From an uncultured Spirochaetota bacterium (GTDB taxonomy: Bacteria; Spirochaetota; Spirochaetia; SZUA-6; Fen-1364): a DNA stretch of 64,000 nt. The position numbers were made by a program, and so were the translations under genes. The notes under the pieces were generated by a model, which saw only the letters and a list, made by a program, of their open reading frames with translations, ran no database searches and was not told the origin of the DNA. The DNA lies in contig CAWGAA010000002.1 of NCBI GenBank assembly GCA_963820525.1, positions 192,001 to 256,000 on the forward strand. Reading direction: 5' to 3'. Below are positions 48,596 through 64,000 of this stretch, one piece after another; position 1 is the stretch's first letter; each line of letters begins with the position of its first letter.

Positions 48596-50113
48596 CTACT
48601 GGAAGCGCCGGCGGATCTCGGCGCTCACGTAGTCGAGCACGGCCACCGTCACGGCGATGAACCAGACCGCGATGCCCGCGGCCCGGTAGTCGAGGAGCCG
48701 GATGTACTGCACGAGGATGAAGCCGACCCCGCCGCCGCCCACAAGCCCGATGACCGTGGACATGCGCACATTGACGTCCCAGCGGTAGATCGAGAAGGAC
48801 ACGAACGGGGAGATCATCTGCGGTACCACCGCGTACATGATGTTCTGAAGGCGCGTGGCGCCCGTGGCGTCGATGGCCTCGATGGGTCCCGGGTCGATCC
48901 CTTCGATGGCCTCGGAATACAGCTTTCCCAGGGCGGCCACCGAATGCACGGTGAGCGCCACGATCCCGGCAAAAGGCCCGAGTCCCACCCAGACCACTGC
49001 GATGAGGGCCCAGATCAAGGGCTCGATGGCCCTTACCACGTTCATGACGGTGCGGGTGAAGAAGTAGATTGCCAGGGTGATGGGCGAGCCGGACATGATG
49101 TTGCGTGCCGCCAGGAAGCTTACAGGAATGGAGAGGATGATCCCGAACAGCGTGGCCATCATGCCCATGAAGATCGTCTCAACCATGCGCTGCACTACCA
49201 ACTGCAGCGGCTCGCTCACGCGAAGCGGCGCAAAACCGATGGGCTGCCGCGCCTCCACCCTGTGCGGCTGTTCCCTGCCCTTCACCGAAGGCCCGATGGA
49301 GTAGGGCATGACGACATCCACGGTGAAGCTGCCCTGCGCGTCGGTCTGAATAGAGAGGTAGTTTCCGCCCTTTCGAAGCTGAAAGGCGTTTCCCAGGGGA
49401 TCGATCCACCACAGATCCACCGGAAGCCCCGGCTTGAAGCCGGTGCCGGAGAGCGTGATGGTAGTGCCGGGAATGAGCTGGTTGTTCTCGTCGAGAAAGG
49501 AGAGGTCTCCCGTGCTCGGGTTGGCCACCATGTGCGGCTTGCCGGGCACGATGGGATCCGGCGCCGGCCCCGGCCCGGCGGACTTCGGCACCATGATGGA
49601 AGCGCCGGCAACCGAAAGGAGCGGCTCCCTGACAACCGCAGCCTGCCACGGCCAGATCACCCTGCCAAGCGGCTGCATGGCCTGGGGGAAGTCGGTCACC
49701 AGCCGGGCGGGGGAGATCTCGCTGATCTGCCACCCCAGGGCAAAGAAAGCGAATAGGATGAGCACGAATAAAAGCGGGCTTCCGCGGTGCTCCCGTGCCC
49801 GAAGGAAGGCGTCCCACCCGTTCCAGAGCCAGATTGCGGCGGCGCAGAGGATCACCAGCACCACGAACAGGGGCTGAAGCTCGAAGGCCTTTCGGAGCAT
49901 CGCGCCGCGAGTCTGCTGCAAGCGGCCGAGGAGCGCGAACCTCCACGCCATCATTCCCACGATGGACAGGACCGAGCAGAGGATGAGAACACCGCGCCAA
50001 ATAGCGCGAGAAAGGGCCTGGCCGAGTCCCGGCACGATGAGGGAGAGGATTCCAGCGGCCCAGGGGCGTACGAGAGCGGGACGCTCTTCCTGGGGGGCGA
50101 GTGCCTGTTTCAT
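48596..50113 (-). CDS. phnE: Phosphonate/phosphate ABC permease with extended N-terminal region
   Basis: C-half ETIFMG, RAIEPLIWAL, GKLYSEAIEGID, RWDVNVRMST; 505 aa. Confidence 0.85.
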   Translation of the reverse strand: MKQALAPQEERPALVRPWAAGILSLIVPGLGQALSRAIWRGVLILCSVLSIVGMMAWRFALLGRLQQTRGAMLRKAFELQPLFVVLVILCAAAIWLWNGWDAFLRAREHRGSPLLFVLILFAFFALGWQISEISPARLVTDFPQAMQPLGRVIWPWQAAVVREPLLSVAGASIMVPKSAGPGPAPDPIVPGKPHMVANPSTGDLSFLDENNQLIPGTTITLSGTGFKPGLPVDLWWIDPLGNAFQLRKGGNYLSIQTDAQGSFTVDVVMPYSIGPSVKGREQPHRVEARQPIGFAPLRVSEPLQLVVQRMVETIFMGMMATLFGIILSIPVSFLAARNIMSGSPITLAIYFFTRTVMNVVRAIEPLIWALIAVVWVGLGPFAGIVALTVHSVAALGKLYSEAIEGIDPGPIEAIDATGATRLQNIMYAVVPQMISPFVSFSIYRWDVNVRMSTVIGLVGGGGVGFILVQYIRLLDYRAAGIAVWFIAVTVAVLDYVSAEIRRRFQ

Positions 50114-50901
50114 GTCGTCGGCCCCTCCTCCCGACGGCCCGCATTAGTGCGCACGGCCTCCTCGCCGTAGATCTCCTTGAACTCGGTGTCCGTCATTCGG
50201 CGGATGTCCTCTCCCGTTCCGCGCCATACGAGCCTGCCGCCGTGGAGACCGATGACCCGGCTGGCATAGCGCTGAACCAGGTCGAGGTAGTGCAGGCTGC
50301 AGAGGATCGTGATGTGGTCCTCGCGGTTGAGCTCCTCCAGGTGTCCGAGGATCGAGTGGGCGAGGACGGGATCGAGGCTGGCAACGGGCTCGTCGGCCAG
50401 GATCATGCGGGGCTGCTGCATCAGGGCCCGGGCGATTCCGACCCTCTGCTGCTGCCCGCCGGAAAGCTCGCGCGCCTGCTTTCGCGCCTTGTCGCGCATC
50501 CCGACCCGTTCCAGCGCCTTCCAGGCCAACTCGCGGTCCGCCGGGGGGAAGCGGTGGAAGAGGCTGGGCCCTGATTTCACGTAGCCGAGGCGGCCGGAAA
50601 GGACATTGGTAAGCACCGAGGATCGCTTCACCAGGTTGAACTGCTGGAACACCATCCCGATCTGGCGGCGGATGCGCCGAAGGTCCTCGCCTTGAGCGGC
50701 GGTGACGTCCACCCCGTCCCAGAGGATCCTGCCCTCGGTGGGGTCGATCAGGCGGTTGATGCAGCGAAGGAGGGTGGATTTGCCCGAGCCGCTCAGGCCA
50801 ATGATGATGAGAAACTCGCCCGGCTCGACGGTGAAGCTCACGTCGCGCAGGGCTACCGTTCCGTCCTTGTACACCTTGGTCAGGTTCTGAACCTCGAGCA
50901 T
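50110..50901 (-). CDS. phnC: Phosphonate ABC ATPase
   Basis: GLSGSGKS, NVLSGRLG, LSGGQQQRVGIAR, ADEPVASLDP. Confidence 0.9.
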   Translation of the reverse strand: MLEVQNLTKVYKDGTVALRDVSFTVEPGEFLIIIGLSGSGKSTLLRCINRLIDPTEGRILWDGVDVTAAQGEDLRRIRRQIGMVFQQFNLVKRSSVLTNVLSGRLGYVKSGPSLFHRFPPADRELAWKALERVGMRDKARKQARELSGGQQQRVGIARALMQQPRMILADEPVASLDPVLAHSILGHLEELNREDHITILCSLHYLDLVQRYASRVIGLHGGRLVWRGTGEDIRRMTDTEFKEIYGEEAVRTNAGRREEGPTT

Positions 50902-50924
50902 GACCGAGTGAGTCCCTTCCTGAA

Positions 50925-50948
50925 AGCGGGGGCCTCGCGGCCCCCGCT
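50925..50948 (-). terminator. GC-rich hairpin between phnD and phnC (terminator or mRNA stabiliser)
   Basis: AGCGGGGGCC-TCGC-GGCCCCCGCT perfect 10-bp stem. Confidence 0.6.
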
Positions 50949-50973
50949 CAATCCATTGCCAAGCGGCCGTCCG

Positions 50974-51882
50974 TCACTTCTTCGGCATCAGTACGTCCGC
51001 TGTCACGCCGGCGGCCTGGAGCACCTGGCGGAAAGAATCATAGAAGCTGTCGTCATGCTTCTCCAGGGCGGTCCACTGGTATGCCGTGTTGATCGCGGCC
51101 TTGCCCTCGGGGGTCGCAATGATGGAGAGAAGACCGTCGACGATCTTGTCTCGCAGCTCCTGCGGCACGGACGGGCTGAACTGCACGCCGTCGTTGGGGA
51201 TGTTGCCGGATTCCTGGAGCACGATCACCTTCTCCATCACGTCGGGGTGATCCTTCTGGATGTTGGCGCGCGCGTCCACGAAGCAGGCGCCTGCATCGGC
51301 CTGGCCCGTGTACACGGCGGTCACGACCGCCGGATGGCTGCCGGCATCCAGGACCTTCAGATCGGTATCCAGATTCAGCCCCGCCGCTTTGAGCATCAGG
51401 CTCGGGATGATCCAGCCGCTCGCGGAAAGCGGGTCCACCCGGGCGAAGCTGTGGCCCTTGAGATCGGCCAGCGTCTTTATGCCCGTATCCGGCCTCGTGA
51501 TGATCATGCCCTTGTAGAAGGCGCTTCCGTTTCGCACGGAGACCAGCGCGGCCTGGGCCACCTTCTGGTCCGCGGCGAGGATGTACGCTGCCGTGGCGAG
51601 CGAGCTCATCTGCGCCTTGGGCGGCTTGGCCTTCATGGCTTCAATGACGCCGACATAGTCCGTGGCCACGAAGGTCTTGAAGAACAGGCCGGTCTTGGCG
51701 TGAAGAAGGTCCGCGACGCTCTGGGCCCCCGCGGAGACTTTCCCCGTCTCGCCGGAGGGCACGTACGCCCAGATGATGGGGTTCTTCTCGGTCCCGAGCT
51801 GCTCCTGCTGCGCCGAGGCGAATCCAATGATCGCGCATGCCGTCATCAGCGCGAGCGATAGGAGAACGATTTTTCTGCCCAA
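50974..51882 (-). CDS. phnD: Phosphonate/phosphate ABC substrate-binding protein
   Basis: TTG start after AAAGGAGG; DYVGVIEAM, DPLSASGWIIP, GSHPAVV, IPND. Confidence 0.88.
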   Translation of the reverse strand: MGRKIVLLSLALMTACAIIGFASAQQEQLGTEKNPIIWAYVPSGETGKVSAGAQSVADLLHAKTGLFFKTFVATDYVGVIEAMKAKPPKAQMSSLATAAYILAADQKVAQAALVSVRNGSAFYKGMIITRPDTGIKTLADLKGHSFARVDPLSASGWIIPSLMLKAAGLNLDTDLKVLDAGSHPAVVTAVYTGQADAGACFVDARANIQKDHPDVMEKVIVLQESGNIPNDGVQFSPSVPQELRDKIVDGLLSIIATPEGKAAINTAYQWTALEKHDDSFYDSFRQVLQAAGVTADVLMPKK

Positions 51883-52920: not shown

Positions 52921-53868
52921 CTATTGCTTATTGCTCTTCAGATCCCAGCTTACCTCGAATTCTGGCCCGGGAGTGCCGTCGGACCTCGTTTGCGTGTACG
53001 TTATCGTGATCTTGGAGAACGTCAGCGCCACTTCTTCCAGCAGCCGGCCGTTGGTTCCCGTGGCGGCCGCGGGCTGGAGCGAGGTTATGATAACGTCCTC
53101 GAGCTCGAACTTGAGAATAGGAAACGTCTCATTGCCTCCACTTCGCAGGACCTCAATGTCCGCGCGTGGGATCTGGTCCCCGTTGGCCGCGTACAAGAAG
53201 AGGCTCGGAGAAGAGCGGTCTATGACTTTGAGGATTGTGAAGCTTCCGAATTCGGCCTTGGATGAGCCGCCGCCGGGAGTCATAGAGCCGGATCTCTCCA
53301 CGCCGAAGTGGTAGCCGACCGTGTCGATCCAATCCCTGTGGTGCTGGTCCGTCGATTCTCCATTTATTTGTTCAAGTTTTGTAAAAATGTCGCATCCGGT
53401 CGGAATGACGATGCCGTCGCTGGAAGCGCCTTGACCCATGCCTTCCAGGTTGACGGTCACATCGCTGGGATCTCCCTTCGGACCCGGGGGACCTTGCGCT
53501 CCGGGATCTCCTTTTTCACCCGCCGGTCCCGTCTGGCCCACGGGGCCGGGAAGACCTTCAGGTCCTATCGGGCCGGTTGAGCCTGCGGGGCCGGGAATGC
53601 CCGCCGGACCCATGGGACCGGTCGGACCTGCAGGTCCGGCAGGGCCCATTGGCCCAACCGGTCCCTTCTCCCCTTTGGGCCCAGGGATGAGATGAATCGA
53701 GCGGACGGCTTTCCAGAGCTGCTGGATGTCGCGCTCGATCCGCTCAAGTCTGGCGTTCTGATTGCCATCCCCCCTGCCGGGTCCGTCGTTGTCTGTCGCC
53801 CACGCTTTCATGGTTAAAAAAGAAATGAATAGGGCGATGATCAGGATCAATCGACGTTCTGTTTTCAT
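52921..53868 (-). CDS. Signal peptide + coiled coil + collagen (24 Gly-X-Y) + Hcp-like (T6SS tube) domain protein
   Basis: RBS GAGGAGG; 315 aa. Hcp motifs [55 protein letters not shown]. Confidence 0.85.
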
Positions 53869-54190
53869 ACTTTCCTCCTCTTGCGTCGAACGGTACCATG
53901 GACGACGAACAGAGGCAAGCGATGGAACGGTCGATTGAGGCATTCTTCCCCGCGTGGAACGCGTTTTGGGGCAAAGTTGGGACACGCGATGCCTTCGGAA
54001 GATCGCTCTTCATTCTCGACTGGATTGTCTCGAATCAGCCCTATTCTCTTACAGTCGCACGAGAGTGTCCCAATGCATGCAATTACAATGATTATATAGG
54101 AATACATGAACGCACTTTCCCGGAAGCGTCATTCTGCTAAGCGATCACTGATTAGCATGGAGCGACGGCAGTATAAGACTATTGAAAGCA

Positions 54191-54206
54191 TGGCATGCTT
54201 TTTGCA
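54191..54206 (+). promoter_or_regulatory. Sigma54 (-24/-12) promoter of the sugar ABC operon
   Basis: TGGCATGCTTTTTGCA, an exact GG-N10-GC match, about 140 bp upstream of the SBP gene. Confidence 0.8.
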
Positions 54207-54347
54207 CAAAATATCATTGACTATCACACCGGGTGATATGTGAAACTCATCGATACAAAGCTCGCACGCCGAGAGCAGGAGGTGATATAACTGTCTAAGG
54301 TGTCAGCTTTGTAGGAGAGTGTCATTTCCAAAAAACGGAGGTGCATT

Positions 54348-55385
54348 ATGAAAAGGTTCCTCGTCTGTCTTCTTGCCCTTCTTGTCCTGGCGGCCTTCAG
54401 CGTTTACGCGGGTGGCGCCAAGGAAGCGGGACCGGCTGCGGGAAAACATCCGATCAAGAACAACACGATCACCATAGCCTGGATACCAAAAGCGTTGAAC
54501 AACCCGGTCTTCGAATTGGGCCGCGTGGGCGCCCTTAAAAAGGCTGAGGAGTTGACCGCCAAAGGTCCCTACAAGGTGAACATCTTGTACGTCGCCTCGG
54601 TGGCATCGGACATTGCGGAGCAGGCGCGGGTTGTCGAGGATGTCATCGCAAAAGGGGTTGACGCCATCGGCATCTCGTGCAACGAACCGACGGGCTGTGT
54701 AGACCCCATCCAGAAAGCGGTCAAAGCGGGAGTCGAGGTCATGACGTGGGATTCAGATTCGCCGAAAAGCGGGCGTTTCACCTACCTGGGTGTCGACAAC
54801 TATGAGGGCGGGAAGGCCGCTGCAGACCTGCTCGTGAAAGCCATGGGGACCAGTGGAGATGTCGCCCTGCTCACCGGCGTGCCGGGAGCGTTCAACCTGG
54901 AGGAGCGCATCCGCGGGTTCAAAGACGGCGTCAAGAACTACCCGAACATCAAGATCGTAAAGACCGTGGCCTGCAACGACGACATCAACCAGGGGGTGCA
55001 GGTCGTGGAGGAGACCATGCAGTCGAACCCCGACCTGAAGGGCTGGTTCTTCGTCGGTCTCTGGCCGCTGTTCGCCAACCGCGGCTCCATGAAGAGCTGG
55101 GAAGCGGCAGAGAAGGCAGGCACGTTGAAGACGATTTCTTTCGACACGCTTCCGGTGGAGCTGGACTTCGTGAAGGATGGATACGTCCAGGGCCTCGTTG
55201 GCCAGAAATACTGGGGCTGGGGATACGACACGGTCCAGATGATCTATGATAAAATCGTCAGCGGGAAGACCTTCGGTTCGTTTACCAACTCCGGCATGGA
55301 TCTCGTCACGCCGAAGAACGTTGCTGTCATGGCCGACATGTGGGCCACAATGGACTTCACCAAGACCCTGCCGCCGGCCTTTTAA
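54348..55385 (+). CDS. Monosaccharide ABC substrate-binding protein (RbsB-like)
   Basis: Signal peptide; [42 protein letters not shown]. Confidence 0.9.
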
Positions 55386-55407
55386 AAGGTGCGCAGGAGC
55401 TTTCGTC

Positions 55408-55445
55408 CCGGCCGGGGTCCATCGCGTCCCCGGTCGGTTTTTTTT
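55408..55445 (+). terminator. Hairpin + T8 between the SBP and ATPase genes
   Basis: CCGGCCGGGG-loop-CCCCGGTCGG-TTTTTTTT. Confidence 0.7.
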
Positions 55446-55465
55446 CGACGCCGCGCAAACCGAAT

Positions 55466-56986
55466 ATGAGTGATGACAGGGCTTTCCTCTTGCAGATGCA
55501 GCAGATATCCAAATCCTTTCCCGGAGTCCAGGCGCTGGACGGCGTGGACCTGGAAGTCCGTGCCGGAGAGGTTCTTGCCCTGGTGGGCGAGAACGGCGCG
55601 GGCAAGTCCACCCTGATGAAGATCCTGAGCGGCGCTCATCGCAAGGACGCGGGGCGAGTCTTTCTGGAAGGAAGGGAGGTGGAGATCGAGAACCCGCACC
55701 ACGCGCTGCAGCTGGGTATCGCCATCATCTACCAGGAGTTCAACCTCACCCGCAACCAGACGGTGGCGGCGAATATCTACATCGCCCGCGAGCCGCGCGT
55801 GGCAGGGCTTGGCGGCGTGTTGGGCTTCGTCGACCGCTCCCGCATGGAAGCGGACGCCAGCCGGGTTCTCCAGCGCATCCGGTCGAAGATTCCCGTCGAC
55901 GTCAAGGTGCGGGATCTTTCCGTGGCCCAGCAGCAGATGGTGGAGATAGCCAAGGCCATCGCGGTGCAGGCGAAGATCCTGATCATGGACGAGCCGACCG
56001 CGGCCCTGGGCGAGAACGAAACCGAGGTGCTTTTCGAGACGGTGCACGGCCTGAAAGCCCAGGGGATCGCCATCATCTTCATCACCCATCGGCTGGAGGA
56101 GATGTTCCGCATCGCGGACCGCGTCGTCGTGCTGAGGGACGGGCAGCGCGTCGGAGAGCTTCCCATCGCGGAGGCGACGCCCGATCGGGTGGTGCAGATG
56201 ATGGTCGGGCGGAGCCTCCAGGAAATCTTTTACAAAGAGCCGGTGGACATCACGCAGCCTATCCTCGAAGTGCGCGGTCTCACCCGGCGCGGCGCCGTTC
56301 TGAACGTCAGCTTCACGCTGCGCCGCGGAGAGATCCTCGGCTTTGCGGGGCTGGTGGGAGCCGGGCGCACGGAGACGGCGCGGCTGCTGTTCGGAGCGGA
56401 CACCCGTGACGGCGGCGAGGTGCTGTTGGAGGGCAAACCTCTGCGGATCGACTCGCCCACCGCGGCCGTGAAGGCGGGGATCGGGCTGGTTCCGGAAGAC
56501 CGCGGCCTGCAGGGGTTGGTGCTCAAGTTGCCGGTCCAGGAGAACATCGTGCTGGCGACCCTGCCGCGGCACAGTACGGCAGGCTGGATGGACAGGTCCC
56601 GGATTGCGGAGACGGCCCATACCTTCGTGCAACGGCTCTCTATCAGGACGCCGCACCTGCGTCAGAAAACGATGCTCCTCTCCGGCGGCAACCAGCAGAA
56701 GGTGGTGCTCGCCAAGTGGCTGGCCTCCCAACCGAAGGTGCTGATTCTGGACGAGCCGACCCGCGGCATCGATGTGGGCGCGAAGGCGGAGGTGCATGCC
56801 CTCATGAGCCGGCTTGCGCGCTCCGGCATCGGCATTATAATGATCTCATCGGAGCTGCCTGAGATCATGGCAATGAGCGACAGGATCATCGTGATGCATG
56901 AAGGTCGCATTGCGGCCGTGCTCGGCCGTTCGGAAGCGACGCAGGAGCTGGTTATGGCGTACGCAAGCGGACAGCAGAGGGGGTAG
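55466..56986 (+). CDS. Monosaccharide ABC ATPase with two NBDs (RbsA-like)
   Basis: GENGAGKS, LSVAQQQMVEIAK, MDEPT; second NBD LSGGNQQK, LDEPTRGIDVG. Confidence 0.95.
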   Translation: MSDDRAFLLQMQQISKSFPGVQALDGVDLEVRAGEVLALVGENGAGKSTLMKILSGAHRKDAGRVFLEGREVEIENPHHALQLGIAIIYQEFNLTRNQTVAANIYIAREPRVAGLGGVLGFVDRSRMEADASRVLQRIRSKIPVDVKVRDLSVAQQQMVEIAKAIAVQAKILIMDEPTAALGENETEVLFETVHGLKAQGIAIIFITHRLEEMFRIADRVVVLRDGQRVGELPIAEATPDRVVQMMVGRSLQEIFYKEPVDITQPILEVRGLTRRGAVLNVSFTLRRGEILGFAGLVGAGRTETARLLFGADTRDGGEVLLEGKPLRIDSPTAAVKAGIGLVPEDRGLQGLVLKLPVQENIVLATLPRHSTAGWMDRSRIAETAHTFVQRLSIRTPHLRQKTMLLSGGNQQKVVLAKWLASQPKVLILDEPTRGIDVGAKAEVHALMSRLARSGIGIIMISSELPEIMAMSDRIIVMHEGRIAAVLGRSEATQELVMAYASGQQRG

Positions 56987-56991
56987 CAACT

Positions 56992-57990
56992 ATGGCAGAA
57001 GACTCGTCGAAATCCTCCGCGCCGAGCGCGCGGCGGGGAGCCGCCCTCCGCGGGATCGTGCGCGCCCAGGAGTTCGGCGTGTCCCTCATCCTGGCCGCGA
57101 TGGTGCTCTTCCTGAGCGTCTTCACGAACACCTTCCTCACGAGCACGAACATCTTCAACATCCTTCGCGCTTTCTCCTGGATCGCCATCAGCGGCTTCGG
57201 CGAATGCATGGTAATCATCACCGGAGGGATAGACCTCTCCGTGGGATCGGTGATGGGCTTCGCCGGTCTGATCTCGGCGATGCTGCTCAGATTCTCCGGA
57301 AACATTCTTCTGGCGGTGGCGGGCGGCCTTGCCGCCGGCGTCGTGATCGGCCTGCTCAACGGATTGATGGTCACGAAAGCACGGCTGCCTCCCTTCATCG
57401 CGACCCTGGGCATGCTGCTCATGGCGCGCGGCCTGTGCTACGGCCTCTCGGGCGGTTGGCCCGTGCAGGATCTTTCCCAGGGCTTTCGAAACCTGGGGCA
57501 GTTCGACATCCCCTTCCTGGGCGCGGGCATTCCCCTCCCCCTGGTGTTCATGATCGTCATCGGCGCGATCATGATGGTGTTCCTGACGCGCACTGTCTGG
57601 GGATACCGCATCTACGCGGTCGGAGGCAATGAAGTGGCCTCGGGGCTTTCCGGCATCAGCACGGACCGCGTGAAGATCATGGTCTACACCCTCGGCGCGT
57701 TCCTCACCGCGATCGGCGGTATCCTGATGACCGCCCGCTTGGGGGTGGCGTCCCCGATGGCTGCATACGGGTACGAGCTCGATGTGATTGCGGCGGCGGT
57801 GGTCGGGGGCACGAGCCTCGCCGGCGGGGAAGGAACGATCCTTGGGGTTCTCATCGGTGCGGCTATCATGCAGGTGCTCCGCACGGGACTCATACTGACC
57901 GGCGTGTCCGCCTACTGGCTGCAGGCGGTCCAGGGTCTGGTGATCGTCGTGGCGATCATGCTCGACCAGCTGCAGAAACGCCGCAGATAA
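56992..57990 (+). CDS. Monosaccharide ABC permease (RbsC-like)
   Basis: GGIDLSVGS, PPFIATLG, YAVGGNEVASGLSGI, ELDVIAAAVVGGTSL. Confidence 0.95.
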   Translation: MAEDSSKSSAPSARRGAALRGIVRAQEFGVSLILAAMVLFLSVFTNTFLTSTNIFNILRAFSWIAISGFGECMVIITGGIDLSVGSVMGFAGLISAMLLRFSGNILLAVAGGLAAGVVIGLLNGLMVTKARLPPFIATLGMLLMARGLCYGLSGGWPVQDLSQGFRNLGQFDIPFLGAGIPLPLVFMIVIGAIMMVFLTRTVWGYRIYAVGGNEVASGLSGISTDRVKIMVYTLGAFLTAIGGILMTARLGVASPMAAYGYELDVIAAAVVGGTSLAGGEGTILGVLIGAAIMQVLRTGLILTGVSAYWLQAVQGLVIVVAIMLDQLQKRRR

Positions 57991-58004
57991 CGCCCCGCCG
58001 GATC

Positions 58005-59816
58005 TTACGCCAGCGGAAACGTGACGCAGAAACTCGTCTTCTCACCCGGAATGCTCTTGAAGGATATCTCGCCCTCATGCTCCTTGACGATCTGCTGGCA
58101 TATGGACAAGCCGAGCCCGGCATTCCTTTTGTTGATCTTCGTGCTGAAGAAGGGCTGAAAAACCCTGTCGTGGATATTGCCGGGGATGCCGTAGCCGTTG
58201 TCGCTGATGATGACCTTGACGCAGCCCTCTTTCTTCTCCGAGTGGATCATCACCTCGAGGTTTCCCTCGTCGAGCATGGCCTCGATGCCGTTATTGATCA
58301 GATTGATGAAGAGCTGCGTAAGCCGGTTCTCGTCGCCGACAATCTCCGCATCGTAGTCGTCCGTCTTTTTTTCGAGCCGGATGTTCTTCTGAGAAAGGCT
58401 GTGGTTGAGAAGCAGGAGGACTTCCTCCAGCAGGACGGCAATGCGGATCCTTTTTTTCGGCAGTTCCCCGATCCGTGAAAAGGAGAGAAGGCTATTGACG
58501 ATCTTCACGATGCGATCCACTTCCTTCTCGATGTCGGTGAGCTTTTCCCTGACCGCCGGGCCCACGGGCTCCCCTTCAATGAGTTCGAAGGTATTCTTGA
58601 TGATGTACAGGGGATTGTTGATCTCGTGAGCGACTCCAACCGCCACTTCGGCTACCGACGCCATTTTCTCGCTCCGGGCAAGGTAGCTCTTGAGATAGTG
58701 CTCCACAGATACGTCCTGAATGAGGATGGTGTTGCCGAAGAAACCGGAATCGGCGTCCCGAAAGCGGACGATGCTGATTTTCACTAGCGCTTTCTGCGCG
58801 AGGGAGACGTTGTCCCAGCTTGCTTCCTCCCCGGCGTCGAGTTTCCGCTTGATCTCTCCAAGGATCTCGCGATTGATTCCATCCAGGATCTTTGAAAGGG
58901 GCATCTTGATGATGGAGTCATGCCCGAGATTCAATATTCTCAGGGCGGCGAAGTTGACCAGCTGCACCCTGGCCTTCAGATCGAGGATGATGACCCCGAT
59001 CGGCAGGTGCTGGATGACGCTTTCGATGTACCGGCGGATGACCAGAAACCTCTTGGCGTCCTCACTGAGCCTTTTCTTGTTGACGGCAAAGGAATAGGTG
59101 AGCTCGAAGAGGCGGTACTTGTCCAGGTCCTTGACCACTTCGGTGCCTCTGCGATAGCCGTCTTTCAATATGGTGACTCGATCGGCGAGATGCAGCACCT
59201 CGTCCATGTTGTGCGTGATATAGATGACGCTTCCGCCGCTCTGCTTCTTCTCCCTGATGATTCTGTAGATGGGCGCCATCTCGTCCGGGGTGAGCTTGTT
59301 GGACACCTCGTCGAAGATGATGAGCCGCGGATCCATCATCCATATCCTGGCCAGTTCCACCATGTACTGCTGGGAGAGGGAGAGCTTGTACATCGGAATG
59401 CCGGGATCGAAACAGAGGTTCAATTTCTCGAAAAGGGCGAGGGTGCTGCGCATCATTTTCGCGTAGTCAATGAAGCCGAGGCGGCTGGCGATCATTTGCC
59501 CGGCGAAGATGTTCTTGACCGCGTCAAGGTTCGGGATGATGTTCAGATCCTGATACACCATCCCGATTCCATGCAGGGTCGACGTTCGCGTGGTGAAATT
59601 CGCAATACCCTTGCCGTCGAATATGATCTCTCCATCCTTTTTCCGCACGGCTCCGCTCAAGACCTTGGCCAGGGAAGATTTCCCCGCCCTGTGCTCGCCG
59701 ACGAGCGCGTGAACTTCGCCGCGATAGAGATCGAAATCGATACCTCTCAAGGCTTGGATGTCGTTGTACGTGACATGAATGTTTCGCATCTGAAGCAGGA
59801 GCTTCTCCGACTTCAT
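58005..59816 (-). CDS. Fusion: RbsA-like ABC NBD + PAS + HisKA + HATPase_c (soluble histidine kinase)
   Basis: GEHRAGKS, MVYQ, LSLSQQYMVELAR, IIFDE, ITH; PAS HLPIGVIILD...VNFAA; H-box VAHEINNPL, N QLFINLINNG, G1 DNGYGI, F QPFFSTK, G2 AGLGL. No TM helix seen. Confidence 0.9.
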   Translation of the reverse strand: MKSEKLLLQMRNIHVTYNDIQALRGIDFDLYRGEVHALVGEHRAGKSSLAKVLSGAVRKKDGEIIFDGKGIANFTTRTSTLHGIGMVYQDLNIIPNLDAVKNIFAGQMIASRLGFIDYAKMMRSTLALFEKLNLCFDPGIPMYKLSLSQQYMVELARIWMMDPRLIIFDEVSNKLTPDEMAPIYRIIREKKQSGGSVIYITHNMDEVLHLADRVTILKDGYRRGTEVVKDLDKYRLFELTYSFAVNKKRLSEDAKRFLVIRRYIESVIQHLPIGVIILDLKARVQLVNFAALRILNLGHDSIIKMPLSKILDGINREILGEIKRKLDAGEEASWDNVSLAQKALVKISIVRFRDADSGFFGNTILIQDVSVEHYLKSYLARSEKMASVAEVAVGVAHEINNPLYIIKNTFELIEGEPVGPAVREKLTDIEKEVDRIVKIVNSLLSFSRIGELPKKRIRIAVLLEEVLLLLNHSLSQKNIRLEKKTDDYDAEIVGDENRLTQLFINLINNGIEAMLDEGNLEVMIHSEKKEGCVKVIISDNGYGIPGNIHDRVFQPFFSTKINKRNAGLGLSICQQIVKEHEGEISFKSIPGEKTSFCVTFPLA

Positions 59817-59829
59817 ACGAGACGACGCC

Positions 59830-61146
59830 TCACGAGCCGATATTGTATCGCTTCATCTTGCGATAGAGGGTTTTTCGGTCTATTTTCAACATCACGGCAG
59901 CTTTCCGCTTGACGCCCCCGCTTCTCCTCAGCGCCTCAACAATGATGTCCCGTGCGCTCGTCTGGTAGCGCACATCCAGGGGCGGTTCGCCGTCCGTTTC
60001 CTTCAAGGCCTGATACTGCTCAGGGATCACCGGGACATCGATCACCTCATCCTCGCAGAATATCACCGCCCGCTCGATGAGGTTCCTGAGCTCTCGCACG
60101 TTCCCCGGCCAATCATGGCCGAGGAGCATGGAGCGCACCTGCTCCGAAATGCCCCGGATCCGTTTCCCGTACCTCTCGTTGAACTCGCGAAGGAAATGGT
60201 CCGCCAATAGCAGAATGTCCTGCCTGCGCTCCCGCAGCGGCGGCAGATGGAGGGTCACCACGGAAAGCCGGTAGTAGAGATCCTCGCGGAATGCGCCCCC
60301 GTCAATCAGGTGCTGCAGGTTCTTGTTCGTTGCCGTCACGATCCGGCAGCCGGCCTTCAAGGTGAGCGAGCCGCCCACGCGCGTGAAACTTCCATCCTGA
60401 AGCACGCGCAGCATCTTTGCCTGGGTCTTTTGGCTCATGTCGGCGATCTCGTCAAGGAAGATCGTACCATCACCCGCGCGCTCGAACATGCCCTGTTTCT
60501 GGAATTTCGCGTCGGTGAAGGCTCCCCTTTCGTGGCCGAACATCTCGCTTTCAAGCAGATCTTCGGGAATCGCCGCGCAGTTTATCTTGATGAAGGGGCG
60601 CTCATCCCGCGCGCTGTGTTTTTGGATCAGGTCGGCGACGAGCTCTTTGCCGGTGCCGCTTTCCCCGGTGACGATGACGGCGGCGTTCGTCGGCGCCGCT
60701 TTCTTCGCCAGCTCGATCACCTTGAGCATCGCCGGGTCCTGGGTCACGATTCGGGCGCCGGCGGCCACGGGCTTTTGCAGGCCCTTCGTGCCGGCCAGCC
60801 GGTCGATCTCCGAGATCAGCTTCCTGTTGTCGATCGGCTTCGCGTAGAAGTTGAGGGCCCCGTATTTCATCGCCGTGACGACGGAGTCCACCGTAGCGTG
60901 CCCGGAGATCATGATCACGGGAATGTCCGCGTTTTCAGCCCTCACGGACCTGAGCAGATCGATACCGTCCTGTCCCGGCATCTTCACGTCGATGATCAGG
61001 AGGTCCATCGGGGCGGATCGCAAGGCAGGCAGGACTTGGAGCGTTTCCGTACAGAAGCGAGCCTCATACCCATGCCTTTTGAGAATGTCACGCAGGGTGA
61101 GGCATATTTTGGGTTCATCATCGACGATAAGCACCGTAAAGCTCAT
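59830..61146 (-). CDS. NtrC-family sigma54-dependent response regulator
   Basis: REC (VDDE, DVKMP), [27 protein letters not shown], Fis-type HTH. Confidence 0.95.
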   Translation of the reverse strand: MSFTVLIVDDEPKICLTLRDILKRHGYEARFCTETLQVLPALRSAPMDLLIIDVKMPGQDGIDLLRSVRAENADIPVIMISGHATVDSVVTAMKYGALNFYAKPIDNRKLISEIDRLAGTKGLQKPVAAGARIVTQDPAMLKVIELAKKAAPTNAAVIVTGESGTGKELVADLIQKHSARDERPFIKINCAAIPEDLLESEMFGHERGAFTDAKFQKQGMFERAGDGTIFLDEIADMSQKTQAKMLRVLQDGSFTRVGGSLTLKAGCRIVTATNKNLQHLIDGGAFREDLYYRLSVVTLHLPPLRERRQDILLLADHFLREFNERYGKRIRGISEQVRSMLLGHDWPGNVRELRNLIERAVIFCEDEVIDVPVIPEQYQALKETDGEPPLDVRYQTSARDIIVEALRRSGGVKRKAAVMLKIDRKTLYRKMKRYNIGS

Positions 61147-61211
61147 TGGCAGCGGCCATTATAGATCACAGCGCGCCAGGCCGCAAGTATCGGCAGCGAA
61201 TGAACGCCGCC

Positions 61212-61538
61212 CTATACTTTCTTGAGATCCCTCGTGAGGAAGTAGCTGAGGATCGTCCGGATGACGATGATCGCCCCGAGGATGCCGAGGCCCTCCCAGG
61301 TCGGGGTCACGACCGTCTTCACGATGTCGCTCGCTATGAAGAACTCGAGCGCGAGAACGAGGTAGCTCCCGAGCTTCAACCTGATCCTCTCGTTCGCCGC
61401 GGAACGGTCTTCAGAACCCGTGATCTCCTTCCTCAGGAAATCGACGAAAGAGAGCGCGATTCCCCAAACCGTGACAAGCGCGCCGATGGCGTTCAAACCG
61501 AGCCCGATGATGTTTATGACGATATGGAAGGTATCCAT
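61212..61538 (-). CDS. DUF1622-family membrane protein
   Basis: RLKLGSYLVLALEFFIASDIVKTV, IRTILSYFL. Confidence 0.85.
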   Translation of the reverse strand: MDTFHIVINIIGLGLNAIGALVTVWGIALSFVDFLRKEITGSEDRSAANERIRLKLGSYLVLALEFFIASDIVKTVVTPTWEGLGILGAIIVIRTILSYFLTRDLKKV

Positions 61539-61724
61539 GGACCAGCGTCCTTCATCTCGATTCTACCCCGCCAACCGGAATCGTCAAGGCCGTTTCCCGA
61601 TGCATTGTTCGGATGCATGCCTATCGGCACTTTTGCCGATTGCGCGGTGAAGCTGCGCTCGGGTACAATTGCTTCTGTCGTGGGACAATGTCCGGGAGTT
61701 GTGTTCCAAAGCGTCGAGGGGCAC

Positions 61725-63044
61725 ATGAAACAGAAGGTTCTGATCGTCGACGATGAGCTCCATATGTGCAGGTCCCTCTGCGAGCTCCTGGAATCGGAGG
61801 ACCTGGAAGCCGTTTACTCCACGGATCCCCTCGAGGCCCTCCAGATCATCTCCGAAGGCGCCGTCGACCTTCTGTTCCTCGACATCAAGATGCAGAAGCT
61901 GAGCGGCATAGACCTGCTGAAGCATGTCAAAGCCAAGGATCCAGGCATTCCCATAATCATGATTACCGGCTATCCCTCGGTGGACAACATCGTCCAATCG
62001 ATGAAGCTCGGAGCGAGCAACGTTTTCGCCAAGCCCCCGAACCTAGACGCGCTCATCAAGGACGCGAAGGTTCTGTTGGAGAGCAGGCTGCGCAGGCAGG
62101 GCAAAGGACGATCGAGCCCACAGAAGATCATCACCCAGGACCACAGGATGAAAAAGATCCTGGGAGCCATGGAGAAGTTCGCCGCCACGGATGCGCCGGT
62201 CCTGATCACGGGGGAAAGCGGGACGGGCAAGGAGCTTTTGGCCAGCGCGCTTCACGACTTGAGCCCCCGGAGGGACAACCCGTTCATCAAGGTGAATTGC
62301 GCGGCCCTGCCGGAGACTCTCCTGGAGAGCGAGCTCTTCGGCCATGAGAAAGGCGCATTCACGGACGCGTTTCATGTCAGGAAGGGCAAGTTCGAGCTGG
62401 CCAACTGCGGCACGATCTTCTTCGACGAGATCGGCGACATGTCGCTGAACAGCCAGTCCAAGATCCTGCGGGTGCTCCAGGAGCACGAGTTCGAGCGTGT
62501 CGGGGGCACGGAGGTCCTCCAGACGGACTTCCGCCTGATCGCGGCCACCAACAAGAATTTATCCGATCTCATCACTGCGGGCACGTTCCGGGACGACCTC
62601 TACTACCGCATTTCCGTGATCAGCGTCGATATGCCGCCGCTTCGGGAGCGGAAGGAAGACATCCTGCTTCTCAGCGGCTATTTCATCAGCGCCTTCAACG
62701 AGGTCTACGCCAAGCGGATCGTGGATCTGGCCGCCGATGTGAAGCAGCTCTTTTTGCGCCATCACTGGCCCGGCAACGTGCGGGAACTGCGAAACTGCAT
62801 CGAGCGGGCGGTCATCTTCTGCGAGTTGGACACCATCTCCCTGGAGGACCTCCCTTCCCAGTACACGGGCTTTGCCGGCGGTCTGCCTGCCACGGATTAC
62901 CAGCAGGCCTACGACAACCTGGACAGGGAGATCATCATGGACGCGCTCATCAGGAGCAAGGGCAAGAAGGCGAAAGCGGCGGAGCTCCTCAAGATCGACC
63001 GGCGCACTCTCTACAACCATATGAAAAGGCTCGGCCTGCGATGA
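61725..63044 (+). CDS. Second NtrC-family sigma54-dependent response regulator
   Basis: REC (VDDE, DIKM), [39 protein letters not shown]. Confidence 0.95.
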
Positions 63045-64000
63045 GCGCGATTTCCTCGCCCCGGCTGGAGATGCGAGGGATCACGGTCCACTACGGCAGC
63101 GTGCTCGCCCTGGAGGACGTGGATTTCGACCTGTACCCCGCGGAGGTTCACGCCCTGGCCGGAGAGCACCGGGCGGGGAAATCGACTCTCGTGAAGCTTT
63201 TAAGCGGCGCGGTGAAGAAGGACGGCGGGCTGATCGTCTTGAACGGCTCGCCCGTCGACGGGTTCACTCCCGGCACCTCGATGCGGCACCGCATAGGGAT
63301 GGTCTACCAGGAGATGAACGTCGTTCCCACCCTGAACGCCATTGAAAACATCTTTGCCGGACAGACGCCCGTGAAGTCGTTCGGGAGGATCAACAGGGAG
63401 TGGATGATCCAGGAGGCAAAACGGCTGTTCGCCCGGCTCAAGGTGGACATCAACCTGGAAGCTCCGCTGTTCAAGCTCTCCATGGCGGAACAGCTCATGG
63501 TGGAGCTTGCACGGCTTCTCTCCATAGATCCCGAGATCCTGATTTTCGACGAGATCTCCAGCAAGCTGACTCCCGTGGAGATGGAGCGCGTGTACTCCAT
63601 CCTCTCCGAGGTGAAGGAGAAGAGCAAGAGCGTCATCTACATCTCGCACGATATGGACGAGATCTTCAGGGTGGCGGATCGGGTGACGATCCTGAAGGAC
63701 GGGCGGCGACGGGGGACGGAGGAGATCAAGGACCTCGACCGGATGAAGCTGATCAAGATGACCTATTCCTTCGTGCTCTCGCGGGAGGAGCTGGAACAGG
63801 ACAACAAGGAGCTGTTCTTCAGAAAGAGGTACAACGAGAACATCATCAAGAACCTGCCGGTCGGGGTGATCATCCTCGACAACCAGAACAGGCTGTACCT
63901 GATCAACAATCCCGCCCGCAAGATCCTGGACCTGGAGGAAAACATCGCCGCCGACAGCTACGTGACCGCCCTTTTCCTGAGGCACGAGCTTCAGGAGTAC
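63041..64000 (+). CDS. Second ABC-NBD + PAS fusion (paralog of 58005-59816); truncated by the window edge
   Basis: Manual translation, 320 open codons: GEHRAGKS, MVYQ, LSMAEQLMVELAR, LIFDEISSKLT, ISH, GRRRGTE, then NLPVGVIILD...INNPA. ATG overlaps the regulator stop. The kinase domain is inferred to lie beyond 64000. Confidence 0.85.
   Translation, partial: MSAISSPRLEMRGITVHYGSVLALEDVDFDLYPAEVHALAGEHRAGKSTLVKLLSGAVKKDGGLIVLNGSPVDGFTPGTSMRHRIGMVYQEMNVVPTLNAIENIFAGQTPVKSFGRINREWMIQEAKRLFARLKVDINLEAPLFKLSMAEQLMVELARLLSIDPEILIFDEISSKLTPVEMERVYSILSEVKEKSKSVIYISHDMDEIFRVADRVTILKDGRRRGTEEIKDLDRMKLIKMTYSFVLSREELEQDNKELFFRKRYNENIIKNLPVGVIILDNQNRLYLINNPARKILDLEENIAADSYVTALFLRHELQEY

Follow-up and report, generated by a model that had tools for sequence, protein, structure and literature searches.

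Histidine kinases fused to an importer-type ATP-binding domain: a candidate signaling system linked to sigma-54 sugar importer operons in Spirochaetota

Kinase-activator-importer modules and their promoters

The window analyzed here is a stretch of 64,000 nucleotides (C2:192001-256000) from the 5.05-Mb genome of an uncultured Spirochaetota bacterium, in which genes were called from a map of open reading frames (ORFs) together with Pfam and NCBIfam scans. It contains a locus built as a mirror pair of the same three-part module, each copy consisting of a soluble histidine kinase that begins with an ATP-binding cassette (ABC) nucleotide-binding domain (NBD), an NtrC-type activator, and an ABC importer operon of the CUT2 family with a sigma-54 promoter site (Table 1). 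The first activator gene (RR1) ends 13 bases from the first kinase gene (HK1) on the same strand, and this RR1-HK1 operon is convergent with the genes of the substrate-binding protein (SBP1), ATPase and permease of the first importer, as the original prediction had described and as Pfam and the ORF map bear out. The second activator gene (RR2) had been listed as the whole ORF 61146-63044, which is over-extended: the REC domain begins at residue 198 of the long ORF, and tblastn and an ATG put the true start at approximately 61725. The ORF of the first importer ATPase opens at 55340, but the likely start is the ATG at 55466 because the NCBIfam alignments begin at ORF residue 49-50. SBP1 has a hydrophobic N-terminal signal (a window at residue 4 in a hydropathy scan) and its top NCBIfam matches (RhaS, RbsB and others) are all under their cut-offs, as is the match of the first permease (RbsC1) to RbsC (232 bits). 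Beyond the second kinase gene (HK2) and outside the window, an exact -24/-12 site is followed by the genes of a second binding protein (SBP2), a two-NBD ATPase (ATPase2) and a larger permease (permease2).

Table 1. Features of the two modules, in window coordinates except where locus L009 is named
Feature	Position	Strand	Basis
Importer operon 1 promoter (predicted), sigma-54 -24/-12, TGGCAT-N5-TTGCA	54191..54206	+	exact consensus match
SBP1, periplasmic sugar-type binding protein (Peripla_BP_4)	54348..55385	+	Pfam 2.3e-60
Importer ATPase 1, RbsA/XylG-like, two NBDs	55466..56986	+	two ABC_tran stretches (Pfam)
RbsC1, RbsC-like CUT2 permease (BPD_transp_2)	56992..57990	+	Pfam 7.1e-44
HK1, soluble NBD-PAS-HisKA-HATPase_c kinase, 603 amino acids	58005..59816	-	Pfam, AF2 monomer, hydropathy scan
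RR1, NtrC-type sigma-54 activator (REC, Sigma54_activat AAA+, HTH_8)	59830..61146	-	Pfam, loop motif
Divergent intergenic region between the two activator-kinase operons	61147..61724	.	ORF map
RR2, second NtrC-type activator, 49% identical to RR1	61725..63044	+	tblastn and ATG for start
HK2, paralogous NBD-PAS-histidine kinase, 45% identical to HK1	63041..64000	+	leaves the window; complete (604 amino acids) in the genome
HK2 in locus L009	2542-4356
Second importer promoter in L009	4548
SBP2 in L009	4604-5659
ATPase2 in L009	5768-7312
Permease2 in L009	to 8505

The original prediction had read HK1 as one RbsA-type NBD followed by a PAS domain and a complete histidine kinase, with no transmembrane helix. 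This order is confirmed by the Pfam matches (ABC_tran at residues 23-172, PAS at approximately 263-350, HisKA at 394-451 and HATPase_c at 494-602), of which HisKA (7e-12) and HATPase_c (4.8e-25) identify a sensor kinase of the HisKA class. One correction concerns the NBD: its signature motif is degenerate, a trait shared with the N-terminal halves of RbsA-type ATPases. The domain limits are 1-241 for the NBD, 242-269 for a connector, 270-368 for PAS, 370-445 for the dimerization and histidine phosphotransfer (DHp) domain, and 455-601 for the catalytic and ATP-binding domain. The motifs of HK1 include Walker A GEHRAGKS, Walker B IFDE, Q89, H202 and the H-box HEINNPL, the H397 of which is invariant in all 42 fusions compared; the full catalytic set of the NBD (Walker A Lys, Walker B Asp-Glu, Q-loop Gln and H-loop His) is present in both HK1 and HK2. 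Neither kinase has a predicted membrane helix, there being no 19-residue window that reaches a Kyte-Doolittle value of 1.6 (the maxima are 1.39 in HK1 and 1.43 in HK2), and the same scan finds at least five such windows in RbsC1 and two in each of three other kinases of this genome.

The fusion is real. Two paralogous copies are present within one genome; ABC_tran, HisKA and HATPase_c occur together in 117 of the 120 best homologs, the three exceptions being short fragments; and the junction of NBD and PAS (window positions ~59009-59096) is bridged by contigs from three of four public sequencing runs, belonging to three studies. The 120 homologs are from independent assemblies and are the best of 1577 with E <= 1e-20 among 7997 scored candidates; one of the bridging runs may be the source sample, and the fourth run has no cover at the junction. 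An assembly chimera had been judged unlikely in the original prediction on the ground that two paralogs share the fusion, and the homologs and junction-bridging contigs now add to that judgment, so that the probability of an artifact of assembly or of gene calling, contradicted by all three kinds of evidence, is negligible.

The first importer operon is preceded by TGGCATGCTTTTTGCA, a promoter predicted from sequence that fits TGGCAY-N5-TTGCW exactly with GG and GC 10 bases apart, just as had been claimed for it. It is one of only 24 exact -24/-12 matches on both strands of the whole genome, in which rpoN is present, and four of these 24 head CUT2 operons that adjoin NtrC-type systems, including both operons of this locus. 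The divergent region between the two activator genes has no -24/-12 match, and no inverted repeat was found in three intergenic regions including this one (seed 6, length 12). An inverted repeat seen by eye approximately 50 bases upstream of the SBP2 promoter (ATTGCC-N7-GGCAAT, L009 4480-4498) is a candidate activator site. RR1 and RR2 both consist of REC, Sigma54_activat and HTH_8 domains, and in both the loop that contacts sigma-54 reads GAFTDA, with D in position 5. This loop (GSFTDA being counted with it) was found in seven of 26 regulators scanned, the D variant being common to the partners of the clade A kinases described below; seven of the ten other activators of this genome have GAFTGA. 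Identical exact -24/-12 sequences also recur within the genome, TGGCACAGGG[C/G]TTGCA six times (C1:2098018, C1:3095695, C3:828104, 836923, 838868 and 859594) and TGGCACCCCGGTTGCT twice (C1:1961557 and 1967164), a recurrence suggestive of a gene family or element that is repeated and controlled by sigma-54.

Three further NtrC-type systems of the same genome adjoin CUT2 importers (L107, C1:1210000-1222000; L108, C1:1644000-1656000; L109, C1:1904000-1917000), with exact -24/-12 sites at C1:1654605 and C1:1910316 in the ranges of L108 and L109, and this organism seems to place its sugar importers under sigma-54 control quite generally. The kinases of these three systems are conventional: a periplasmic part of approximately 260 residues is enclosed by two membrane helices and followed by HAMP. 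The NBD takes the place of this membrane sensor in HK1 and HK2, and it is mainly because of this replacement that the NBD is regarded here as the input module.

Origin, distribution and gene neighborhoods of the fusion family

An exhaustive profile-free search of 1.84 billion representative proteins returned full-length family members (570-660 amino acids) as 120 of the 150 best matches, and clustering at 50% identity gives at least 120 clusters with this architecture. Of 401 genomes sampled evenly from the phylum of the window, 14 (11 of 153 genera) have a full-length match at E <= 1e-60, at 19 places. Relatives are labeled Spirochaetia or Treponemataceae by their source, and a genome labeled candidate division KSB3 has three copies of the fusion. 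Other combinations of these domains exist as leads in the Atlas, where clusters with ABC_tran, HisKA and GAF_2 (one of 852 amino acids with 166 members, another of 826 amino acids), mostly from Actinomycetota, and a 515-amino-acid ABC_tran and HisKA cluster from Spirochaetota have scores of 0.83-0.84, the reliability line being 0.9.

In a tree of 92 NBDs, made by a quick IQ-TREE search with a midpoint root only, the 42 NBDs of fusions group together as a single clade (SH-aLRT 99), the sister group of which is 20 N-terminal NBDs of the neighboring CUT2 ATPases. The joint grouping has a support of 93, and the C-terminal NBDs are a separate group. Two subclades can be distinguished: clade A, with Walker A GEHRAGKS, includes HK1 and HK2, and clade B, with GEHGAGKS, is 28-31% identical to HK1. 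By these sequence relationships, the NBD of the kinases is a descendant of the N-terminal half of a CUT2 ATPase.

Gene neighborhoods were compared at 27 loci (two from this genome, 23 from other Spirochaetota and named metagenome-assembled genomes, and two more from the KSB3 genome; L113 is the same place as L014), which were mapped by tblastn with the proteins of the window, ORF calls, and Pfam on unassigned genes. A first search of contigs was dominated by the generic H-box pattern, with six true fusions among 80 loci, and was replaced by the search of genomes. L064, which has an ordinary two-NBD ATPase beside a conventional kinase, was rejected as a fusion locus and is left out of all counts. 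An NtrC-type gene is located directly upstream on the same strand at all 26 loci that can be assessed, the contig of L103 ending before that position. CUT2 permease or ATPase genes are located within approximately 10 kb of the fusion at 26 of the 27 loci, compared to a chance adjacency of approximately 7%, calculated from the 22 BPD_transp_2 permease genes that this 5.05-Mb genome has at 18 places; linkage to CUT2 transporters had been named beforehand as a point on which the original prediction could fail, and the outcome favors it. A correctly oriented -24/-12 site with at most one mismatch heads the neighboring operon at every one of the 27 loci (15 exact, 12 with one mismatch), and the 25 loci that were scanned, amounting to approximately 424 kb, have only seven other such sites. 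The importer's own ATPase is encoded at 23 of the 25 loci of the first set, of the others one being on a contig that ends early and one lacking an importer. This ATPase usually has two NBDs, and has a single NBD of 262-265 amino acids in L093 and L103.

Given the conserved synteny, the promoters and what is known of the protein families, it is highly probable that the kinase is wired through the activator to the sigma-54 importer operon. The soluble kinase would phosphorylate the NtrC-type activator whose gene immediately precedes its own, and this activator would in turn drive the adjoining CUT2 (ribose/xylose-type) importer operon from its sigma-54 promoter; both phosphotransfer and promoter control are deduced from family membership and from synteny, the regulator being adjacent at 26 of 26 loci.

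Both clades of kinases adjoin importers of differing subtypes, some of them in operons with catabolic enzymes. The first gene of the operon encodes a shikimate/quinate dehydrogenase in L099 (6614-7483) and L100 (12385-13338), and a URO-D-like protein in L016 (7203-8459). Because enzyme genes such as these open some of the operons, the substrates of the importers are probably diverse across loci, and there are hints that some of the importers take up cyclitols or other non-sugar substrates. The variety of importer subtypes fits a sensor that would read the transporter rather than one particular sugar.

What the nucleotide-binding domain may sense

The ATPase of the window divides its motifs between two halves: the N-terminal half has a consensus Walker A (GENGAGKS) and a degenerate signature (LSVAQQQ), and the C-terminal half has a degenerate Walker A (GLVGAGRT) and a canonical signature (LSGGNQQK). 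The kinase fusions carry the N-type pattern, and single-NBD CUT2 ATPases, which are obliged to homodimerize, retain LSGGQ. Across the full-length representatives of the fusion family, conservation of these elements is highest for the Walker A Lys (119 of 119) and the Walker B Asp (117 of 120), followed by the catalytic Glu (107 of 120) and the Q-loop Gln (101 of 120), and is lowest for the H-loop His (76 of 120); LSGGQ is absent from all 120. This is the pattern of a domain retained for nucleotide binding, which is predicted, with hydrolysis dispensable. Conservation was further compared with that of 34 true CUT2 N-terminal halves because there was no solved CUT2 complex for mapping of the interface; in this comparison the Walker A Asn of the true N-terminal halves is replaced by His in the fusions, and the D-loop region of the fusions is altered.

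The division of motifs admits an explanation in which the NBD reads the transporter through its ATPase, an N-type NBD pairing with the canonical-signature C-terminal half or with a single-NBD ATPase and reporting the engagement of that ATPase. A C-type half such as those of the window's ATPases is the natural partner of an N-type NBD, and the single-NBD ATPases of L093 and L103 have LSGGQ-type signatures. At most loci, however, the C-terminal half is covalently bound to an N-terminal half of its own, and the D-loop region of the fusions has changed; such pairing is considered improbable.

The decay of hydrolysis motifs in many lineages would also be expected if the NBD were an evolutionary relic without a signaling role, attached to what is otherwise an ordinary cytoplasmic PAS kinase. 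Against this explanation, which is very improbable, the NBD is better conserved than the PAS core (mean column identities of 0.44 and 0.33, respectively), its Walker A Lys is invariant, and the connector from G220 of the NBD to G274 of PAS is 54 residues long in 95 of the 120 representatives (range 50-55). Nor is there any sign of full-length orthologs lacking the NBD among the best 150 representatives, in which every match under 400 amino acids without an NBD covers part of the query only. The spacing from PAS to the phosphorylatable His is 36 residues in 110 of 120 representatives, and PAS cores range in length from 65 to 111 residues. The near-constant lengths of the connector and of the PAS-to-His segment suggest a register-sensitive mechanical link.

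An NBD that is kept for nucleotide binding might serve the same circuit without ever touching the transporter, either as a cytoplasmic nucleotide sensor or as a nucleotide-stabilized dimerization module, with the kinase gated by ATP/ADP. The PAS domain would then detect the imported sugar or a metabolite, the linkage to the importer signifying a regulatory target only. In keeping with such a sensor, the binding residues are near-invariant and the hydrolysis residues, signature and DEPT/D-loop are relaxed, PAS is present in all members examined, the importers have ATPases of their own, and one member has no adjacent importer. What it leaves unexplained is the identity of the NBD as a CUT2 N-terminal half, maintained as a single clade in two phyla and in more than 120 clusters and beside CUT2 importers. 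Furthermore, dimers of the ATP-sandwich kind ordinarily require the signature motif, and in every member that motif is degenerate; the Q-loop Gln, which is the element that couples NBDs to permeases in ABC transporters, is kept by most of the family; and no part of the protein is less conserved or more variable in length than the PAS core. This explanation is rated as unlikely.

The preferred reading places the two NBDs of a kinase dimer at the coupling helices of the permease dimer, where they would replace or exchange with the importer's ATPase. The input of the kinase would be its N-terminal NBD, binding nucleotide without a need for hydrolysis and joined to the PAS-DHp core by the connector of fixed length. 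Movement of the NBDs, caused by arrival of the sugar-loaded binding protein at the permease or by transport as such, would set kinase versus phosphatase activity. The binding protein and permease would together be the receptor, and a single kinase family could work with importers of differing substrates. Docking is favored because of the linkage to CUT2 importers of several subtypes, the origin of the domain, the retention of the Q-loop and nucleotide site alongside decay of the hydrolysis residues, the fixed connector, and the score of a predicted complex. In this prediction, which models one permease chain (RbsC1) with one NBD (residues 1-250 of HK1), the ipSAE was 0.55 (0.55, 0.57 and 0.55 in separate runs) versus 0.01 for the best of three controls, with contact agreement of at least 82% and partner pLDDT of at least 79, a result that the tool grades as weak. 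The ipSAE mark is reached by 116 of 157 solved complexes and by two of 215 mismatched pairs, and values up to 0.60 account for only 18 of the 157 solved complexes yet for both of the mismatches that passed. No sequence relative of the permease was found in the PDB at E 0.01; other NBD-permease complexes are there.

A number of observations weigh against docking. An ipSAE of 0.55 could be attained by any CUT2-like NBD through family likeness. The importer's own ATPase is encoded at every locus with enough sequence, so the docking sites of the permease have their regular occupant, and the kinase would need to compete for these sites or share them. A basic residue located five after the Walker A Lys, which in MalK pairs with the EAA loop of the permease, is relaxed in the family: this position is K in 88% of ATPases versus K or R in 64 of 120 fusions. 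Also relaxed in the fusions are the DEPT motif, with P retained in 3% and T in 2%, and the signature Gln, retained in 16%. At one fusion locus, L105 (G143:C31, 4804-7314 and 11153-16130), no CUT2 gene lies within 9 kb; the divergent side, toward which the sigma-54 site is directed, has a gene for a secreted-looking Big_5/ice-binding-like protein, and LacI-araB-araD-araA genes are downstream of the kinase. The kinase and permease are, by sequence comparison, not strictly co-diversifying: locus L111 of the KSB3 genome (G402:C43:59000-78900) encodes a binding protein, ATPase and permease 58-60% identical to those of the window's second importer, but a clade B kinase, where the same importer subtype has a clade A kinase in the window. 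Modules appear to move between phyla and to re-assort. Finally, the arrangement of domains in HK1 is not readable from the AF2 model of the monomer (mean pLDDT 80.4, with good individual domains) because pTM is 0.44 and residues 242-257 are of low confidence.

On balance, docking of the NBDs of the kinase dimer on the permease coupling helices, with the binding protein and permease setting kinase activity, is given a little less than an even chance. A fuller version, in which the ABC importer has been turned into a transmembrane receptor, the kinase dimer with its poorly hydrolyzing NBDs replacing the motor ATPase in a sub-population of complexes and docking of the binding protein leading, by the usual conformational coupling of ABC transporters and the connector, to kinase output and sigma-54 transcription of the importer, is possible and is put forward more tentatively. 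The original prediction had likewise had the kinase plug its NBD into the permease; the architecture, activator pairing, sigma-54 promoter and CUT2 linkage from which it reasoned have held up, and the predicted complex speaks weakly for the plug itself, but family likeness, the resident ATPase and the relaxed residues leave docking a conjecture.

Other genes flank the two modules. A phosphonate-type ABC importer on the minus strand at 48596-51882 of the window (a Phosphonate-bd protein at 50974-51882, an ATPase at 50110-50901 and a BPD_transp_1 permease at 48596-50113) appears to be unrelated to the kinase-importer module. The minus strand at 52921-53985 encodes a 354-amino-acid protein with collagen triple-helix repeats (approximately residues 117-174) and a C-terminal Hcp domain of the type VI secretion system (201-330), which is an unusual architecture for Hcp. 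Past the second importer, L009 8572-13031 contains genes for a 4'-phosphopantetheinyl transferase and an AMP-binding (acyl/aryl-CoA ligase-like) protein.

Comparison with known systems

A full-text literature search found no published study of an ABC-NBD/histidine kinase fusion, and within that search the original statement that no system of this architecture has been characterized holds good. PMC2788356 merely lists the domains as abundant, and for Treponema denticola a 2025 paper names only AtcS/R and Hpk2/Rrp2 as characterized.

The relatives of the NBD are the CUT2 ATPases (RbsA, XylG, AraG, MglA and YtfR; TC 3.A.1.2), to the N-terminal halves of which residues 3-250 of HK1 align with E values of 1e-43 to 1e-54, and with which HK1 shares a consensus Walker A combined with a degenerate signature, besides the position of the fusions as sister clade to those halves. 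Unlike these ATPases, which have two tandem NBDs in a chain of approximately 500 amino acids, HK1 has one NBD, and it misses all of the NCBIfam equivalog cut-offs (for example, 185 versus 689 for AraG, 178.6 versus 745 for RbsA, and 178.6 versus 850 for YtfR). The fusions have GEH[R/G]AGKS as Walker A where these ATPases have GENGAGKST; conservation is relaxed at the DEPT motif, the signature Gln and the H-loop; and the fusion NBD is joined to a kinase, the motor of the importer being encoded separately.

The kinase part resembles kinases of the NtrB/AtoS/ZraS type in its PAS-HisKA-HATPase_c order, its HEINNPL motif, the adjoining REC-AAA+-HTH_8 activator and the -24/-12 target promoter, and its closest matches are AtoS (residues 254-602), ZraS (9jfj) and ThkA (3a0r). 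The match to AtoS (NF008468) scores 219 bits versus a cut-off of 646 and covers residues 254-602 only. In AtoS and ZraS the sensing parts are in the membrane or periplasm, and NtrB senses by way of PII, whereas the sole extra module of HK1 is an ABC NBD.

In the Bce modules of Firmicutes (BceS/BceR with BceAB), the kinase lacks a ligand-binding sensor and relies on the very ABC transporter under its control, according to two papers (PMC12070737; PMC9169098). The likeness is one of logic only, reliance of the kinase on an ABC transporter being proposed for HK1. BceS is embedded in the membrane by two helices and contacts the permease within it, whereas HK1 is soluble and carries its transporter domain covalently; moreover, BceAB is a resistance transporter with its own permease family and an OmpR-type regulator, in contrast to the BPD_transp_2 permease and NtrC-type regulator of the modules described here. 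Closer to importers, the MalK-MalT and PstSCAB-PhoU-PhoR systems of Escherichia coli relay the state of an importer NBD to transcription. They do so through separate proteins, the regulatory domain of MalK binding MalT and PhoU bridging PstB and PhoR, unlike the direct fusion of NBD and kinase. Kinases resembling ECF S-components, described in PMC11109136, are a different case. A transporter module does serve as the input of a kinase in CbrA/CrbS, in which an SLC5 symporter domain is followed by STAC and a histidine kinase (PMC5715377). The module captured there is the membrane permease of a secondary transporter, whereas in the fusions a primary transporter has contributed its soluble ATP-binding subunit.

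In the usual view, two-component kinases sense through sensor domains of their own or, rarely, through accessory transporters that they touch in the membrane; the family described here is a large one in which the soluble motor domain of a sugar importer appears to have been captured as the input. Even if the NBD does not dock, it would be an unrecognized input module of kinases and would explain the regulation of many spirochete sugar importers. If it does dock, a soluble kinase would read an extracellular ligand through an ABC transporter, with no membrane-spanning sensor protein; the system would be a clean one for the study of NBD-permease coupling without ATP turnover; and its design would be modular, with the specificity of the sensor set by a swappable binding protein.

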